Origin: Patescibacteria group bacterium
GTDB taxonomy: Bacteria; Patescibacteriota; Microgenomatia; UBA10105; UBA927
Direction of reading: 5' to 3'
NCBI GenBank assembly: GCA_038062895.1
Contig: JBBTWJ010000005.1
Coordinates: 131,715 to 195,714, forward strand
DNA length: 64,000 bases
Shown here: positions 2,722-47,882 of the stretch, piece by piece
Layout of the letters: every line of letters starts with the position of its first letter
Position numbering within the stretch: position 1 is the first letter of the stretch
Made by a program: the position numbers and the translations under genes
Notes under the pieces: model-generated
Seen by the model: the letters and a program-made list of their open reading frames with translations, nothing else
The model's database searches: none
Told to the model about the DNA's origin: nothing

Positions 2722-2772
2722 AGAGTGCGGTGCAGAACTTATAAAATAAGAATGGTATCATTGTAGATATCT

Positions 2773-3519
2773 ATGACCGTTATCACAAGGGGGGAGTCGG
2801 TACAAAAGAGGACAGAACGAGCATCACAAGTGGTTTCACTCCTAAAAATATTCTATCCGAAGGCACAGATCGTTCTTCGATACACAAATTTCTGGGAACT
2901 ATTGGTTTCTGTTATTTTATCCGCTCAATGCACGGATGTGATGGTCAATAAGGTGACAGAAAGACTGTTTAAAAAATATCCAGCCTTTGGGGATTATCTG
3001 AAGGCTGATACTAAGGAGTTTGAACAGGATATTAAATCGACCGGCTTTTATCATAATAAAGCGAAGAATATCTTAGCCGCGGCAAAGCTCATTCAAGAAA
3101 AATTTAAAGGCGAGATACCCAGGACAATGGATGAAATGCTGACGATCCCGGGGGTGGCACGGAAAACTGCCAACGTGGTGTTGGGCAATGCGTATGGAAT
3201 TGTGGAGGGGATAGCGGTCGATACCCACGTCCTTCGTTTGAGCCAACGGTTGCGGTTGGTGGACCTGGAAAAGATTGGTGGAAAAAAGAAATTGCATTTC
3301 ACAAGGCCAGGACTTGCAGACACCAATGAGTTTATTGATTATAAAAAAGACGCCGATCCGGTGAAGATTGAGACGCAACTGATGGAGGTATTGCCAAGAG
3401 AAGATTGGTTCAACACTACCTATCTCCTCATAGATCATGGCCGTGCTGTGTGCAAAGCACAGAGTCCAAACTGCAGCCACTGCGTGCTCCAAAAGTTTTG
3501 CCCCTCCTCGCGGATTTGA
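2773..3519 (+). CDS. nth: endonuclease III (DNA glycosylase/AP lyase), with an internal insertion
   Basis: HhH-GPD core with the catalytic Lys region 'LxxIPGVARKTANVVL'. C-terminal 4Fe-4S ligands 'CKAQSPNCSHCVLQKFC' (C-x6-C-x2-C-x5-C). Confidence 0.85.
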   Translation: MTVITRGESVQKRTERASQVVSLLKIFYPKAQIVLRYTNFWELLVSVILSAQCTDVMVNKVTERLFKKYPAFGDYLKADTKEFEQDIKSTGFYHNKAKNILAAAKLIQEKFKGEIPRTMDEMLTIPGVARKTANVVLGNAYGIVEGIAVDTHVLRLSQRLRLVDLEKIGGKKKLHFTRPGLADTNEFIDYKKDADPVKIETQLMEVLPREDWFNTTYLLIDHGRAVCKAQSPNCSHCVLQKFCPSSRI

Positions 3520-3724
3520 TCATCGGCACAGCGGATTGTGCTTTCCCATTGGGTGTGGTATGCTTTGGCGATTGACGAAAGCCAGGTAGTGAAACTTCGA
3601 TCTTGCTTTGAAAGCAAGGAAAACATACTTGGTAAAAACAGTATTGATTGATTAATAAAGGAGGATTAGGACAAAAGATTTTTTTGGAAGAAACAAAAAA
3701 ATTATCGAAGTTCTACTACCTGGT

Positions 3725-16532: not shown

Positions 16533-16957
16533 GAAATGCTAGTAACGACGTGCTATCGAGGTCCCAAGTTTTTAATATGTTTTATTTTGTTGTCTCTGCG
16601 AGCGTAGCAGCTTCGTCCTCTTGTGAAATTGTTGGTTGCCATAAAATCCTTGGTGGCCAAGTCCATTCAACGAGAACGCCAGCTGCGGGAATGGGGATTA
16701 GCGTTACTTTTTTTGCAGTGGGTAACGGTGTCCTATCGGGGAGACGGAGGTCGCCGGGGTTTTGCATTCCTAGTCGTGTATCTGCAGACATTATATCTCC
16801 TTTTCTGCGCCGGAAATTGTAGTTATATGAATATCACTATCCACCACATCTCGTGCACTCGCCTTACCTACTATTCGTAGCGCGGCTCGTGCTCTCGATT
16901 GTTGGTGGATTGATGGTTACTAAGCTCGTGAATAAGTATTCACTCGCAAAGTAACCA

Positions 16958-16990
16958 ACAAAAAAAGGGCGCGTGTCTAGCCCTATAAGG
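16958..16990 (-). terminator. rho-independent terminator (GGGCTAGACACGCGCCC + T7 on the minus strand)
   Basis: GC-rich hairpin followed by seven T on the minus strand, downstream of the minus-strand PRTase genes. Confidence 0.6.
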
Positions 16991-25193: not shown

Positions 25194-25227
25194 GCGAGTA
25201 AAGCGAGTCGAAGGATCTTAAAAATAC

Positions 25228-25363
25228 AGATATCAGGGGAATCGTGGTGTGAATCCACGGCTGTGCCGCAACTGTAAAGCCAGAAAACCTGAATCGTAGA
25301 CCGTCTCTCGAGCAAGGGGAATTTTTTTGGTGTAGCCCTCTTGATTATGAGAGGGCTTTTATT
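25228..25363 (+). ncRNA. cobalamin (B12) riboswitch-like leader with an intrinsic terminator expression platform
   Basis: AGGGGAA...GGUGUGAAUCC...GCUG...CCGCAACUGUAA (B12-box variant GCAACUG)...AAGCCAGAAAACCUG matches the cobalamin riboswitch core. Terminator GCCCUCU-loop-AGAGGGC followed by UUUUAUU directly abuts the GNAT ATG. Confidence 0.5.
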
Positions 25364-33399: not shown

Positions 33400-33471
33400 G
33401 GGGCTGTAGCTCAGCGGTAGAGCGCTACTCTTATAAAGTAGATGTCCTTGGTCCGATCCCAAGCAGCCCCA
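33400..33471 (+). tRNA. tRNA-Ile (anticodon UAU)
   Basis: Hand-folded cloverleaf with acceptor GGGGCTG/CAGCCCC, D stem GCTC/GAGC, anticodon stem CTACT/AGTAG, loop CTTATAA, T arm CTTGG-TCCGATC-CCAAG. CCA not encoded. Confidence 0.75.
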
Positions 33472-33480
33472 CCTGTTGGC

Positions 33481-42904: not shown

Positions 42905-43291
42905 CTACCGCCTCGTGCAGTGGGAGCGTAGCCAGGAGGCGATTTCCGGCAGGTCCGGTTTTTTGTTGTCTACGTGGATCATAAAGTCCGCTCCATCGCG
43001 CGGTGTCGCCTTGAGGCGATACCCATTTAACCAGAGAAATCGTTTGGTTGCGGCCCATGCCGTTCTTTTATTTCCATCAGTGAACGGGTGATTCATGCAA
43101 AGTGATTGTAAAAGAGCCGCAGCCATGGAAAAAAGCGTGGGGTAGAGAGATTGTCCGTTAAATGTCGCTTTACATCGCTCCACTGCGGAATGAAGGAGTG
43201 AGAAATCGCGGACACCAGCCTTGGTGCCTGCACGATGGATGATCGCTTCGTGGATCGCATACGCCTCTTCAATATCGAGAAACTGTGTCAT
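42905..43291 (-). CDS. doc: Doc (death-on-curing) Fic-fold toxin
   Basis: Doc motif 'HPFTDGNKRTA'. Confidence 0.75.
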   Translation of the reverse strand: MTQFLDIEEAYAIHEAIIHRAGTKAGVRDFSLLHSAVERCKATFNGQSLYPTLFSMAAALLQSLCMNHPFTDGNKRTAWAATKRFLWLNGYRLKATPRDGADFMIHVDNKKPDLPEIASWLRSHCTRR

Positions 43292-43300
43292 GGGTATGGA

Positions 43301-43549
43301 TTAAGCGAGTTGGTCCAGGAGCGCACCGTCTTCCTTGAGAAACCCGTCAAGCCACGCTTGAAATTCTTTCTGGGAGCGGGTGGATGAGGTAGATGATTTG
43401 GCAATCGGACGAACAAAAACACCCTCTGCCTGAGGCACATAATCGATTGTCATTTTTTGTCCGCGGCGCCACCGGGCCTCCTGCATGATGGGAGCGGGGA
43501 GAATGACCGCATTGCTGTTGCCGAGCTGGGAAATGGTTGTTGTCTGCAT
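43301..43549 (-). CDS. AbrB/MazE (SpoVT-AbrB) type antitoxin
   Basis: 'ISQLGNSNAVILPAPIMQEA' swapped-hairpin motif. 9 bp upstream of doc on the same strand. Confidence 0.6.
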   Translation of the reverse strand: MQTTTISQLGNSNAVILPAPIMQEARWRRGQKMTIDYVPQAEGVFVRPIAKSSTSSTRSQKEFQAWLDGFLKEDGALLDQLA

Positions 43550-44227: not shown

Positions 44228-44299
44228 GGGTGAGTAGTTTAGTTGGAAAAATTCCGATCTCCAAAATCGGAGTCGTAGGTTCGATGCCTACCTCGCCCG
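44228..44299 (+). tRNA. tRNA-Trp (anticodon CCA)
   Basis: Cloverleaf with acceptor GGGTGAG/CTCGCCC, D stem GTTT/AAAT, anticodon stem CCGAT/ATCGG with loop CTCCAAA, T arm GTAGG-TTCGATG-CCTAC. 52 bp upstream of trpS. Confidence 0.8.
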
Positions 44300-44351
44300 C
44301 CGCGTCATACGCGGCTGACACGTTTGACGTGTCGCCTTTGAAAGTAATTAT

Positions 44352-45155
44352 ATGAACAACAACATGATCGGCATTATCGGAGGCATGGGGCCGCAGGCAT
44401 CGAGTGAATTGTATCGTCTCATCGTTCACGAGGCGCGGCATCGCTATGGCGCGCGAGAAAATAATGAGTATCCGGAGGTGCTTATCGACTCAGTACCCGT
44501 GCCGGATTTTTTGGCCGATACGGCAAAGATGGAAGAGGCGGCGACGATTCTGGAGGACCGTGTTCGACGGCTGACGGCATTCGGCGCAACAATGATAACG
44601 ATGGCGTGCAATACCGCGTGCATCTTGGCTGACCGACTGCAACGGCAGACGGATGTTCCGTTTGTTTCTGTCGTGGAAGAGGTAGTGAAAGAAGTTTCTC
44701 GTGGCGCCCAACGGGTACTGCTTCTTGCCTCACCGACATCACTCCGGTTAGGACTCTACCAGATGGCGTTGGCGCGTCATAACTTTCCGTATATAGTACC
44801 AAAGAGTCGGGATTACCAGGAACTTGAATTTATTATTCGAGGGGTTTTGTCAGGGGAAGATCGCGGGCTGCTCATGAGAAAAATTACAAAGTTGGTAGCC
44901 GGGTACCGGGAGATAGAGAAGATAGATGGTGTCGTGTTGGGTTGTACGGAGCTTCCGTTGGTTTTTCCGGTGAATTATGATCTGCCGGTTTATAATTCAC
45001 TTTCCATTCTCGCAAACACTATATTAAAACAGTATTATACAAAGCCCTCCGGAGCTTACCGTTCGCCTTCACGTACTATTCGTACACGGCTCACGGAGCG
45101 CTCTCTGGAGGATTTAAGAAACACTAATCTGATACAATCAGAAAAGTGTTTCTAA
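44352..45155 (+). CDS. aspartate/glutamate/hydantoin racemase family protein
   Basis: 'IGIIGGMGPQAS', 'MACNTA' and 'LGCTELP' motifs carrying the two catalytic Cys. Confidence 0.75.
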   Translation: MNNNMIGIIGGMGPQASSELYRLIVHEARHRYGARENNEYPEVLIDSVPVPDFLADTAKMEEAATILEDRVRRLTAFGATMITMACNTACILADRLQRQTDVPFVSVVEEVVKEVSRGAQRVLLLASPTSLRLGLYQMALARHNFPYIVPKSRDYQELEFIIRGVLSGEDRGLLMRKITKLVAGYREIEKIDGVVLGCTELPLVFPVNYDLPVYNSLSILANTILKQYYTKPSGAYRSPSRTIRTRLTERSLEDLRNTNLIQSEKCF

Positions 45156-45165
45156 AAGAGGCCCT

Positions 45166-47160
45166 ATGAATCTGAAAGATACTATCGAAAAAATACTGAA
45201 AGAGAAAAAGGTTGACTATAAATTTATCCCATTGCCGGAGGATTTACCGTTTGATGTGCCATCACATGCAAAGTTTCACAACATTTCCCTTGCGCAGGCG
45301 ATGGTAACGATACTCTACAGAACGGAGAAGGGGATAGTCGCGGCGGTCAGGTGCGCGGATACACAAATTGATCAGGAGAAACTAAAAAAACTTGCAGGGG
45401 TCAAGACGCTTGCGTTTGCTTCAAAAGAAGAGTTGAAAACTCTCGGTACAGAAGCTGGACTTGTGCCATACTTGGGGCTCACTATTCCGTATTTTATCGA
45501 TGCAAAAGTTTTGACGATAGGAAAAGCCTATGGGATCGGAGGCGCACGAACACTTGGCATGGTGATGAATGCAGCTGATATGCCAAAGGTGAACGGAGGA
45601 GTGGTGGGCGAGTTTGCATACCACGAGACAAAACGAGATATAAAAGGGAAACGATTATTGTCCGGTATCACGCCCAGCGGTGATGGGAGTCTGCATATCG
45701 GCAATTATCTGGGGGCCGTGCGGCAATTTATCGAGCTTGCGCGGACCAATGAAACGTTTCTTATGGTTGCCGACCTCCATGCGCTCACGACGGTGCAGGA
45801 TAAGGCGCGGCTATCAGGAAATATCGAGGCGTTGGTCCTCAACGAGCTTGCACTCTTGCGCGGGTTCATGACGGTGCAAGAGTTTGCAAAGATTATCTTT
45901 TTCCGTCAGTCGGATGTTGCCTGCCACACCGAGCTTCAGTCAATTCTCAATAACGTGACTCCCTTGGGCCTCATCAAGCGCGCGCACGCATACAAAGATA
46001 AATTGCAAAAAGACGTGATGGAGGATGATATCAACATGGGGCTTTTTTCCTATCCGATGCTCATGGCGGCGGACATTCTTCTCTATAAACCAGACCTTGT
46101 GCCGGTAGGGAAAGACCAGAAGCAGCATGTGGAGATTACGAGAGATATTGCGGGCAGGTTTAACAAGACGTTTAAGACAGTAAGACAGAAAGACGGTAAG
46201 ACAGGAGTATTCAAACTTCCAGAACCATACATACCAGAGGAGGTGGCGGTGGTACTGGGGACTGACGGAAAACGGAAGATGAGTAAGAGCTTGGGAAACA
46301 TAATCAGCATCTTTGATGATGAGGAAAATATAAGGAAACAAGTGATGAGTACGTACACCGACCCGACCAGAATTCACGCCAATGACCCCGGACACACCGA
46401 GGGGAACATGGTCTTCACGTACCTCGACTTTTTTGGTGAATTGGAAAAAAACAACGAGTTGAAGGAAGCCTATAAGAAAGGTCAAGTGGCTGATATTGAG
46501 GTAAAAAATTATTTATACGAATCGCTGCTCAAATACTTTGCAAATGCGCGCCAAACGTATAAAGAATTGGCCGCACATCCCGAGACTGTCAAAAAAATAC
46601 TAGAGGATGGGGCAGAAAAAGCCAGGAGTGTTGCCAGGGATACGATGGGTGAGGTAAGGGAGGCGGTGGGACTTATAAATAAATACAGCATACAGATAGC
46701 AGATAACAGAAAACAGATAGCAGACAACAGAGAACAGAAAACAGAGAATAGAGATCAGATAAAACAAAATACAACTGGGGTGATTACCATAGAGGAATTT
46801 GGGAGGGTGGAGCTGCGGGTGGGGAAAGTGGTCGAGGCGACGAACAAAGAGGGGAGCGAGAAGTTGATACGGTTGGTGGTGGAATTCGGACCCTCCTTCG
46901 CCAAGGCTACGGCGGGCAAGCAAGCGGAAACACGTGTAATTTTTACTGGCGTGCGGGGGTATGGGTATTCACCTGCAGATTTTCTCAATAAACAATTTTT
47001 CTTTATCACCAATCTCGCGCCACGCAAAATGATGGATGAAGAATCTCAAGGAATGATTTTAGCGGTAGATGGAGACGAGTTACCGTTTGGTGAACATGGC
47101 CCCAAAAAGCCTGTATTTGTTTCCGCTGAAGGATTGCCCGTGGGGGCGAAGATACGGTGA
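45166..47160 (+). CDS. trpS: tryptophanyl-tRNA synthetase with an N-terminal YbaK/ProX-like editing-type domain and a C-terminal Trbp111/EMAP-like tRNA-binding domain
   Basis: HIGH region 'SGITPSGDGSLHIGNYLGA' and 'KMSKS'. N-terminal about 150 aa with YbaK-like 'KTLAF...GLVPYLGLTIP...GIGGART'. C-terminal OB fold 'VELRVGKVVEATNKEGSEKLIRLVVEFGP'. Low-complexity linker encoded by an (ACAGARAA)n repeat. Confidence 0.8.
   Translation: MNLKDTIEKILKEKKVDYKFIPLPEDLPFDVPSHAKFHNISLAQAMVTILYRTEKGIVAAVRCADTQIDQEKLKKLAGVKTLAFASKEELKTLGTEAGLVPYLGLTIPYFIDAKVLTIGKAYGIGGARTLGMVMNAADMPKVNGGVVGEFAYHETKRDIKGKRLLSGITPSGDGSLHIGNYLGAVRQFIELARTNETFLMVADLHALTTVQDKARLSGNIEALVLNELALLRGFMTVQEFAKIIFFRQSDVACHTELQSILNNVTPLGLIKRAHAYKDKLQKDVMEDDINMGLFSYPMLMAADILLYKPDLVPVGKDQKQHVEITRDIAGRFNKTFKTVRQKDGKTGVFKLPEPYIPEEVAVVLGTDGKRKMSKSLGNIISIFDDEENIRKQVMSTYTDPTRIHANDPGHTEGNMVFTYLDFFGELEKNNELKEAYKKGQVADIEVKNYLYESLLKYFANARQTYKELAAHPETVKKILEDGAEKARSVARDTMGEVREAVGLINKYSIQIADNRKQIADNREQKTENRDQIKQNTTGVITIEEFGRVELRVGKVVEATNKEGSEKLIRLVVEFGPSFAKATAGKQAETRVIFTGVRGYGYSPADFLNKQFFFITNLAPRKMMDEESQGMILAVDGDELPFGEHGPKKPVFVSAEGLPVGAKIR
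47125..47160. repeat. 36-bp direct repeat, copy 1 (the trpS 3' terminus itself)
   Basis: gctgaaggattgcccgtgggggcgaagatacggtga. A diverged copy at 47905..47940 also reads xEGxPVGAKIR-stop. Confidence 0.8.
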
Positions 47161-47198: not shown

Positions 47199-47450
47199 AT
47201 GTTTAGTACCAAAGTATATACCCCAGAACAAGTAGCCGAAATGCTGCAGCTTTCCAAAAATACCGTGTACGGGCTCATCAACCGCGGCGAGATCATTGCA
47301 AAGAAGATCGGCAATGTGTACCGGATCCCGGCACGCTCCATCGCGTTTGTGTTTAACGGTTTGGATGCGGATTTATCCGATGCGCAGGCAGCCGATGAAC
47401 AAAATTTTTCCCGTGTGCAACAAGCTATCAATGCGGTCCGCGCTCCCTAA
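47199..47450 (+). CDS. excisionase-family HTH DNA-binding protein (probable antitoxin of the downstream PIN toxin)
   Basis: 'TPEQVAEMLQLSKNTVYGLINRGEIIAKKIGNVYRI' excisionase/MerR-like HTH. Stop directly abuts the PIN ATG. Confidence 0.55.
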   Translation: MFSTKVYTPEQVAEMLQLSKNTVYGLINRGEIIAKKIGNVYRIPARSIAFVFNGLDADLSDAQAADEQNFSRVQQAINAVRAP

Positions 47451-47882
47451 ATGTATATCATGCCGATCCGTGTATTTGTTGATTCCGACGTCATTATTTC
47501 TTCCCTCATATCCAAAACAGGAGCTGCCTATCTGCTGATGCAGGACACACGTATCAATCGGTTCATCTCCGATGTGTCTCATGTCGAACTCAAGAGGGTG
47601 GCAGATGTATTACATCTCTCACAGAAAGATTTGCAGAAGCTTGTAGATGCTCAGTGTCGCGTTGTGAAGATCGGGGAGTACCCGGGTGAACGCAAACGTA
47701 TGGCGGAATATACACGCGACTTGCATGACACACATATCGTATTGGGAGCGAAACTCGCAAAAGCAAAATTTCTGGTTACGTATAATCTGAAGCATTATCT
47801 GGTTGAAAAAATACGGGAGGATTTGGGAATCATCGTCCTGACCCCGGCATTCCTTTTGCAATATTTAAGGAGTTTGAATTAA
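47451..47882 (+). CDS. PIN-domain protein (VapC-like toxin)
   Basis: 'VFVDSDVIISSL' PIN N-terminal Asp motif and later conserved acidic residues. Confidence 0.6.
   Translation: MYIMPIRVFVDSDVIISSLISKTGAAYLLMQDTRINRFISDVSHVELKRVADVLHLSQKDLQKLVDAQCRVVKIGEYPGERKRMAEYTRDLHDTHIVLGAKLAKAKFLVTYNLKHYLVEKIREDLGIIVLTPAFLLQYLRSLN

Follow-up and report, generated by a model that had tools for sequence, protein, structure and literature searches.

A tryptophanyl-tRNA synthetase of Patescibacteria fused to a lysine-less YbaK/ProX-fold domain, a candidate quality control module

Tryptophanyl-tRNA synthetase (TrpRS) and tyrosyl-tRNA synthetase (TyrRS) are among the textbook synthetases without an editing domain. 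Our analysis of a 64,000-nucleotide stretch of DNA from a Patescibacteria group bacterium (contig JBBTWJ010000005.1 of assembly GCA_038062895.1, positions 131,715 to 195,714 of the forward strand; referred to below as the window) reveals a TrpRS gene, trpS, in which a domain of the YbaK/ProX fold precedes the catalytic core in a single reading frame. We suggest, with a probability of about 0.4, that this amino-terminal domain (N-domain) may be a non-canonical post-transfer quality control hydrolase that works in cis to clear tRNA-Trp of a tryptophan look-alike; the suggestion draws on sequence comparison and on structure models. The gene belongs to a one-direction tryptophan unit made up of tRNA-Trp, a two-cysteine racemase, a structured leader-like element and the three-domain TrpRS.

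A three-domain TrpRS

The trpS gene (45166-47160, plus strand, as are all its parts) is a single open reading frame (ORF) of 664 amino acids, identified by Pfam and TIGR00233, and comprises three domains. They are the N-domain, which belongs to a lysine-less subfamily (residues 1-160; 45166-45645; PF04073, profile comparison with the PDB, AlphaFold and Foldseek); a bacterial-type TrpRS catalytic core (residues 161-505; 45646-46680; PF00579, TIGR00233 and alignment with PDB entries); and, beyond a flexible linker, a carboxy-terminal OB-fold tRNA binding domain of the Trbp111/MetRS-C type (46771-47157; PF01588, TIGR00399 and PDB matches). A reading of the letters alone (the sequence-only reading) had proposed this tripartite organization, and PF04073, PF00579 and PF01588 indeed all score above threshold in the one ORF.

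The core matches PF00579 (tRNA-synt_1b) over residues 163-458 (2e-57) and scores 276.5 bits with TIGR00233 (trpS), the cut-off being 176.75. Its closest solved matches are the TrpRS structures 3m5w (2e-68) and 2el7 (8e-66), and alignment with 3m5w locates the motifs LHIGNY (HIGH, here HIGN), KMSKS, LMAADIL (AAD) and VGKDQ (GKDQ). Judged by its sequence, this is an ordinary bacterial core whose catalytic apparatus is intact. The carboxy-terminal domain matches PF01588 (tRNA_bind) over residues 550-635 (4e-12; 46.4 bits, cut-off 27), TIGR00399 (metG_C_term, 7e-21) and, among solved structures, Trbp111 (1pyb) and MetRS beta (8vtz), both at 3.6e-14.

The linker between these two domains is of low complexity and repeat-encoded, as the sequence-only reading had recognized: Tandem Repeats Finder (TRF) locates a 21-bp tandem repeat (3.7 copies, 82% matches) at 46685-46761, which encodes ADNRKQIADNREQKTENRDQ. 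Both its length and its sequence differ freely between homologues, and residues 507-537 have a predicted local distance difference test score (pLDDT) below 50 in a model of the full-length protein. This model (pLDDT 79, predicted template modelling score (pTM) 0.54) shows three folded bodies, of which the carboxy-terminal one is beta-rich. The N-domain is tied to the first Rossmann strand, beside the HIGH motif, by a tether of only about 10 residues.

The N-domain has a YbaK/ProX fold

The N-domain matches PF04073 (tRNA_edit) over residues 35-137 (E 1e-10; 42.2 bits, cut-off 25.5). A profile built from 37 homologues finds APE2540 (1wdv, 1e-15), ProRS INS domains (6e-11), YbaK (2e-8) and also ProX in the PDB. 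Modelled with AlphaFold together with the same number of homologues, residues 1-160 give a pLDDT of 93 and a pTM of 0.86. In Foldseek the model is matched at probability 1.00 by 2cx5 (ProX; template modelling (TM) score 0.81), 1dbu (YbaK; 0.79), 2dxa (YbaK; 0.80) and 1wdv (0.82); the TM range is 0.64-0.82 when ProRS INS domains are included, and the free-standing proteins are at about 0.8. The assignment of residues 1-150 to the YbaK fold, which the sequence-only reading had made, is thus borne out by a confident model and by structural similarity. The matches also include the YbaK-like domains of SadB and Maqu_0641, which are not translation proteins. No structure of DTD, the D-aminoacyl-tRNA deacylase, is among the top 50 Foldseek matches listed, and the fold is that of YbaK, which places the N-domain outside the DTD family. 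The N-domain has a true YbaK/ProX fold and is a member of the INS superfamily by fold and by hidden Markov model (HMM), but not by catalytic signature.

Several elements of the superfamily are nevertheless found in the N-domain, namely T48, D69, K72, G98, D112 and G126, and T48, G98, D112 and G126, the backbone-forming elements of the pocket, are invariant or nearly so. The domain also carries an arginine, R62, and positions 47 and 62 are predicted by the model to be cross-strand partners in a hairpin formed by strands E45-53 and E56-63. Across species the N-domains are 53-93% identical, like the carboxy-terminal domain, and on this comparison of homologues the N-domain is under constraint.

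A lysine-less clade of the INS superfamily

The family's strictly conserved catalytic or positioning lysine is K279 in E. coli ProRS and K46 in H. influenzae YbaK. Conservation of this lysine, proposed as a check in the sequence-only reading, did not hold, as the position is occupied by V47. To place the N-domain, its profile HMM was searched over 1.84 billion representatives, which gave 3739 matches at E <=1e-3 and 632 at <=1e-10. The best 150 of the 3739 were combined with 30 matches of another search, and the resulting 176 distinct proteins were profile-aligned.

Position 47 is a lysine in 82 and another residue in 92 of the 174 proteins that have a residue there, and the best-scoring proteins are those without the lysine. 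A proline at position 102 is found in 73 of 82 Lys-bearing proteins as against 20 of 91 lysine-less ones. Conversely, position 62 is Lys or Arg in 1 of 80 proteins with K47 and in 62 of 91 without it (n=171; Fisher p 1e-22, with no phylogenetic correction). On this alignment the lysine-less proteins are a distinct clade of the INS superfamily, in which the lysine and the proline of the GXXXP loop were lost together and Lys or Arg is usual at position 62. The structural model raises the idea that the basic side chain may have moved from position 47 to the neighbouring strand.

Free-standing lysine-less proteins are also found, in Saccharibacteria and Acidobacteriota, encoded away from trpS. In both of these distant phyla a free-standing gene lies directly 3' of a Glyoxalase_6/VOC-family gene (Saccharibacteria CP025011, L008 4590-5474; an Acidobacteriota-like contig, L038 3317-4525). 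A Peptidase_S58 (DmpA-type aminopeptidase) gene is close by on the Acidobacteriota-like contig.

Distribution and fusion partners

The architecture survey covered the 120 closest TrpRS clusters at 90% identity, which come from Gottesmanbacteria, Roizmanbacteria and other Microgenomates. The N-domain is present in 78 of them and the carboxy-terminal OB domain in 105. In 56 clusters the architecture is that of the window (N-domain, core and C-domain), 7 clusters carry two tandem N-domains ahead of the core and C-domain (780-799 amino acids), 15 have the N-domain and core, and 41 have the core and C-domain without an N-domain; in one further cluster a racemase is read through into TrpRS. Judged from a tree of the cores, the N-domain is an accessory domain that is frequently lost or gained. 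Some N-domain copies, designated type C, retain GXXXP (as GYVSP).

Could the fusion be an artefact that arose from a frameshift, from a chimera in the assembly or from a wrongly called start? The source is metagenome assemblies, and one relative, P0106, resembles a racemase-TrpRS read-through fusion. However, three separate assemblies from Hainich groundwater (L001-L003) each carry the same 664-amino acid ORF intact, so it is no assembly accident, and an identical protein (P0001) is held by NCBI as a metagenome-assembled genome (MAG) tryptophan--tRNA ligase from Patescibacteria group bacterium. The ATG is preceded by a good ribosome-binding site (AAGAGG). Moreover, the fusion recurs in related genomes, which the sequence-only reading had proposed to survey: it is in-frame, in one ORF and with no frameshift, in the 78 clusters and in 19 GTDB species representatives. 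A frameshift, a pair of ORFs or a chimera was rejected on these grounds, and we give an artefact of any kind a negligible probability. P0106 itself was also rejected as a genuine fusion; it is probably a read-through across the structured element described below, and it has an internal Met ahead of the core.

Remoter fusions extend to TrpRSs of Dojkabacteria and other Patescibacteria, with core identities of 32-53%. The domain combinations are varied. In P0178, for instance, the lysine-less domain follows TrpRS at the carboxy terminus; P0220 joins a B3/4 domain (the PheRS editing type) and a lysine-less domain to TrpRS; and P0198 carries a lysine-less domain on a bacterial TyrRS. Lys-bearing YbaK domains occur at either end of archaeal-type TyrRSs (P0242, P0184) and at the carboxy terminus of an AspRS (P0231). 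A YbaK domain is also joined to a D-Ala-D-Ala carboxypeptidase (Peptidase_S11) in P0290.

These partners bear on the possibility that the domain edits other tRNAs in trans (Ala- or Cys-tRNA-Pro, or tRNAs mischarged with Ser or Thr) and is merely tethered to TrpRS. ProX, YbaK and INS, the nearest solved relatives, do act on tRNA-Pro; members of the same clade stand free and away from trpS in Saccharibacteria and Acidobacteriota; and the AlaX-like domain of Plasmodium TrpRS, proposed to be a tethered trans-editor, offers a precedent. But the synthetases fused to YbaK-type domains among the best 150 matches are TrpRS, TyrRS and AspRS only, which is not a random set, the N-domain lacks the motifs for editing Ala- or Cys-tRNA-Pro, and its genes have tryptophan-related rather than proline-related neighbours. 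We regard trans-editing as quite improbable.

Gene neighbourhoods

The interval 44228-47160 takes in three genes, tRNA-Trp, the racemase and trpS. The tRNA-Trp gene (44228-44301, plus strand; anticodon CCA, discriminator G73; ARAGORN, and Rfam RF00005 at 59.4 bits) forms the 5' edge of the cassette. The sequence-only reading was right about this tRNA-Trp(CCA) gene but had placed it 52 bp before trpS; in fact trpS starts 864 bp past it, and the racemase ORF (44352-45155, plus strand, 267 amino acids) intervenes, starting 50 bp past the tRNA gene. This ORF encodes a PLP (pyridoxal phosphate)-independent amino acid racemase of the Asp/Glu racemase family (PF01177, E 3e-30; TIGR00035, 130.8 bits, cut-off 93.1). 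Its best solved relative is the 'aspartate racemase' of P. horikoshii (2zsk, 9e-29), and two catalytic cysteine motifs, ACNTA and GCTELP, can be read in it. A scan for promoters and terminators gave counts not above those of shuffled sequence.

Neighbourhoods were compared across 20 N-domain loci (the window and 19 GTDB species representatives found by a genome scan with type-A N-domains) and 6 loci without an N-domain. The interval from tRNA-Trp to trpS holds a variable, tryptophan-themed cassette, and in 10 of the 20 loci tRNA-Trp lies directly ahead of the first cassette gene. The racemase occurs in the window and in seven other loci (L011, L012, L014, L018, L021, L022, L027), directly upstream of the N-domain trpS in those seven. 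Four loci carry TrpB2, with a SerK/SbnI-like gene as well in one; a trpD-C-F-B-A operon lies upstream of trpS in one (L026); six (L010, L013, L015, L023, L024, L025) have an unknown gene and a second, archaeal-type TrpRS; and two have a TrpD-like gene with BtpA. A tryptophan-supply cassette is found in 19 of the 20 N-domain loci but in only 1 of the 6 without the domain (p 5e-4, with no phylogenetic correction), and 5 of the latter 6 have neither tRNA-Trp nor a cassette.

The second TrpRS of close relatives (for example L013 3554-4681) is an archaeal/eukaryotic-type enzyme of 375 amino acids (TIGR00233, 208 bits) that matches A. pernix TrpRS (3a04, 5e-46). A conserved unknown gene of 337 amino acids accompanies it, and these operons hold two different TrpRS genes. 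The TrpB2 call rests on NF009057 (686 bits), and the TrpB2 loci include L007/L019, L016, L017 and L018. In L007/L019 (L007 2193-3999) the order is tRNA-Trp, a 133-amino acid SerK/SbnI-like gene, TrpB2 and the N-domain trpS. TrpB2 enzymes use O-phosphoserine, and the SerK/SbnI-like, TrpB2 and trpS genes look like an operon that leads from indole salvage to charging.

An association with variable tryptophan-supply genes would also suit a ligand sensor or regulator. Free Trp, D-Trp, indole derivatives or uncharged tRNA would then be ligands of the N-domain, and their binding would tune the activity or expression of TrpRS. Loss of the catalytic motifs and the YbaK-like domains of SadB and Maqu_0641 fit such a role. 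Yet aminoacyl-adenosine ends are the sole known ligands of the fold, and the conserved loops at G98 and G126 fit the binding of an ester substrate, so that a sensor has, in our estimate, as low a probability as trans-editing.

Some further arrangements were seen around trpS. In L021 (5088-5301) the racemase and trpS come directly after a tandem pair of tRNA-Trp(CCA) genes, and in L035 a trpS that lacks an N-domain has an isonitrile-synthase-like gene of the DIT1/PvcA family upstream (2743-3708). In the window, small toxin-antitoxin-like pairs flank trpS on both sides: a Fic/Doc-like gene with a small antitoxin-like ORF upstream (42905-43549, minus strand), and an HTH_17 gene with a PIN-domain gene downstream (47199-47882, plus strand). 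Similar pairs flank the trpS of relatives L004, L035 and L037.

A possible role in quality control of tRNA-Trp

The fold, the tether, the pocket glycines, the relocated base, the TrpRS and TyrRS fusions, the pairing with B3/4 and the link to tryptophan supply led us to infer a cis-acting module, whose 3'-end binding, hydrolysis and substrate would be as follows. The N-domain, held beside the active-site entrance where the 3' end of the tRNA enters, would still bind the aminoacylated CCA end and, after transfer, would hydrolyse look-alike-tRNA-Trp in cis. The carboxy-terminal OB domain on its floppy repeat linker would contribute general tRNA affinity. D-Trp is the leading candidate substrate because of the racemase gene next door, and because the YbaK-type fusions involve exactly TrpRS, TyrRS and AspRS, whose D-aminoacyl products are the ones cleared by DTD (PMC1807948). 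Mutation of dtd makes E. coli sensitive to D-Tyr, D-Asp and D-Trp, and D-Trp-tRNA-Trp is among the substrates that DTD hydrolyses (PMC1807948). Tryptophan analogues made by a promiscuous TrpB2 may be the substrate instead, since TrpB2 or trp-operon cassettes fill the same position in relatives. DTD itself gave no match in the window or the examined loci, the search having used an E. coli query of approximate sequence and covered these loci only.

Several findings weigh against a hydrolytic role. All characterised deacylases of the INS superfamily use the conserved lysine and the GXXXP loop (PMC11286415). In the N-domain the family lysine (of IVKTL, IAKTM, IVKSL, IIKSV and LAKTV) pairs with V47 in each of the five profile alignments printed; none of the 37 TrpRS-fused domains has K there, the residue being V, A, T, S, P or N; and the loop is altered to G98-L-V-P-Y102, with the glycine kept and a tyrosine in fifth place. 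The N-domain was rejected as a canonical YbaK/ProXp deacylase because it has neither the lysine nor the proline of GXXXP. The N-domain is also dispensable, as it is often gained or lost and is missing from 41 of the 120 close relatives; parsimony on a core tree built by neighbour joining needs at least 28 changes for it, a count that such a tree likely inflates, and 7 for the C-domain. The covariation at position 62 and the cassette statistics ignore shared ancestry. Finally, we know of no established need for editing by TrpRS.

The same findings can be read as signs of a degenerate, non-catalytic relic that holds the acceptor end of the tRNA or serves as a scaffold, raising tRNA affinity together with the OB domain in an organism whose genome is small. 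Both hallmark motifs of the literature rule are lost, the enzyme already has another accessory tRNA binding domain, and the N-domain often disappears from a TrpRS that stays. An inert relic does not so readily account for the conservation of the pocket glycines and T48, for the basic residue regained at the predicted cross-strand position, or for a lysine-less domain that is paired with B3/4 in P0220 and duplicated in the 780-799 amino acid forms. Nor does a generic role in tRNA affinity predict that the N-domain should track tryptophan-supply cassettes. We place cis editing ahead of this inert domain, its main rival, which is possible though less probable.

A bolder form of the editing proposal would make the lysine-less clade a chiral-proofreading deacylase of a new class, one that acts on D-aminoacyl-tRNA with a relocated basic residue. 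In Patescibacteria it would be cis-fused to TrpRS and TyrRS, two synthetases known to load D-amino acids by mistake, and accompanied here by a racemase that salvages D-Trp; it would be the first real editing step of TrpRS. We think this version unlikely, if somewhat less so than trans-editing.

Relation to known systems

The INS/YbaK/ProXp deacylases (PF04073; T. thermophilus ProX 2CX5, H. influenzae YbaK 1DBU, ProRS INS 2J3L) share the fold of the N-domain, at TM values of about 0.8. The N-domain differs in lacking the lysine (V47) and the GXXXP proline, in having Lys or Arg at position 62 instead, and in being fused to a class I TrpRS. According to a 2024 review, superfamily members other than INS are single-domain proteins, and ProXp-7, -8 and -9 are uncharacterised (PMC11295145). 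The N-domain may belong to the ProXp-8 or the ProXp-9 cluster.

An editing-type domain on TrpRS has a precedent in the amino-terminal AlaX-like domain of Plasmodium falciparum TrpRS (PMC3240968). As in the window, the domain is amino-terminal on an enzyme without a known need for editing; it has, however, an AlaX rather than a YbaK fold, and the TrpRS is eukaryotic-type where that of the window is bacterial-type. The lineages are unrelated, so the two fusions are independent. A second comparison is the ProRS of S. cerevisiae, whose amino-terminal INS-like domain SternJohn et al. are said to have described in 2007 as a defunct editing domain. It too is an amino-terminal INS-like domain with degenerate catalytic features on a synthetase, but it stays on its historical partner, ProRS, whereas the N-domain has TrpRS as its partner, a compensating basic residue and wide retention.

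With DTD any analogy would be one of function alone: its substrates D-Trp-, D-Tyr- and D-Asp-tRNA match the YbaK-type fusion partners, but the fold of DTD is unrelated and its Gly-cisPro motif is absent from the N-domain. The carboxy-terminal domain is shared with Trbp111, with the carboxy terminus of MetRS and with EMAPII-type domains (PF01588, 1PYB, MetRS beta), although here it sits on TrpRS rather than on MetRS, PheRS or TyrRS.

Parts of this picture are already known: public databases list the protein as 'tryptophan--tRNA ligase', Patescibacteria commonly carry the fusion, and a different editing-type domain is known from the TrpRS of Plasmodium. The literature searched contained no description of a YbaK-TrpRS fusion, and nothing relevant on DTD in Patescibacteria or on editing fusions of aminoacyl-tRNA synthetases in the candidate phyla radiation (CPR). 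The sequence-only reading had called the domain a novel, cis-acting proofreading module; a YbaK-fold fusion undescribed in that literature it is, but 'proofreading' goes past the evidence, given the altered lysine and GXXXP loop.

The conserved fusions in several arrangements, the pairing with B3/4 and the link to tryptophan salvage suggest that these ultra-small bacteria, which live by scavenging, face an undescribed quality control problem with aromatic amino acids. In addition, the lysine-less branch breaks the rule of a conserved Lys plus GXXXP and provides a test case for whether the chemistry depends on the lysine or the neighbouring strand can provide it. If the N-domain is inactive, it is a clear example of an editing fold reused for tRNA handling.

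A structured element upstream of trpS

A two-hairpin structured element of about 110 nucleotides (45045-45155, plus strand; nucleotide conservation, RNAalifold and minimum free energy (MFE)) lies between the racemase domain and the ribosome-binding site of trpS. The racemase domain ends near 45040, and the final 42 codons of its ORF run across the element, which thus overlaps the 3' end of the ORF. The element is 89-92% identical in nucleotides to its copies in L005 and L035, although the TrpRS cores share only 70-75% identity. RNAalifold on the three sequences gives 36 pairs, 3 of them with compensatory changes and none broken, and the MFE is -44.1 kcal/mol (z -4.6). No Rfam family was matched.

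The possibility that the conserved racemase 'tail' is a protein segment was rejected, and a structured nucleic acid element favoured, because of the compensatory changes and because L035 has the element without a racemase. Besides the element, that locus retains a piece of the racemase gene from its 3' end. Copies were located in L035 (3871-4003) and L005 (923-1057), and a covariance model finds diverged copies in the window (16832-16975), L025 (988-1129, minus strand), L018 (2069-2246, minus strand) and L004 (3913-4037). The copies are about 110-135 nucleotides long, and the diverged ones keep the core UCGCCUU..CUACUAUUCGUAG..GCGGCUC. The copy at 16832-16975 adjoins the 3' end of an opposite-strand gene. 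A leader or riboswitch specific to trpS is made less plausible by the copies at 16832-16975, in L025 and in L018; as these lie away from trpS, the element is better regarded as dispersed, perhaps as a structured repeat of that kind or as a small RNA. The apparent racemase-TrpRS 'fusion' P0106 is probably due to it.

Other features of the window

A tRNA-Ile gene with anticodon TAT is found at 33400-33473, and another in L028. The TAT anticodon is unusual for bacteria, in which AUA is normally left to a CAT tRNA modified with lysidine. In addition, the aptamer of an AdoCbl-II (cobalamin) riboswitch lies at 25220-25298, with a score of 44.2 bits against an Rfam gathering score of 36.5.

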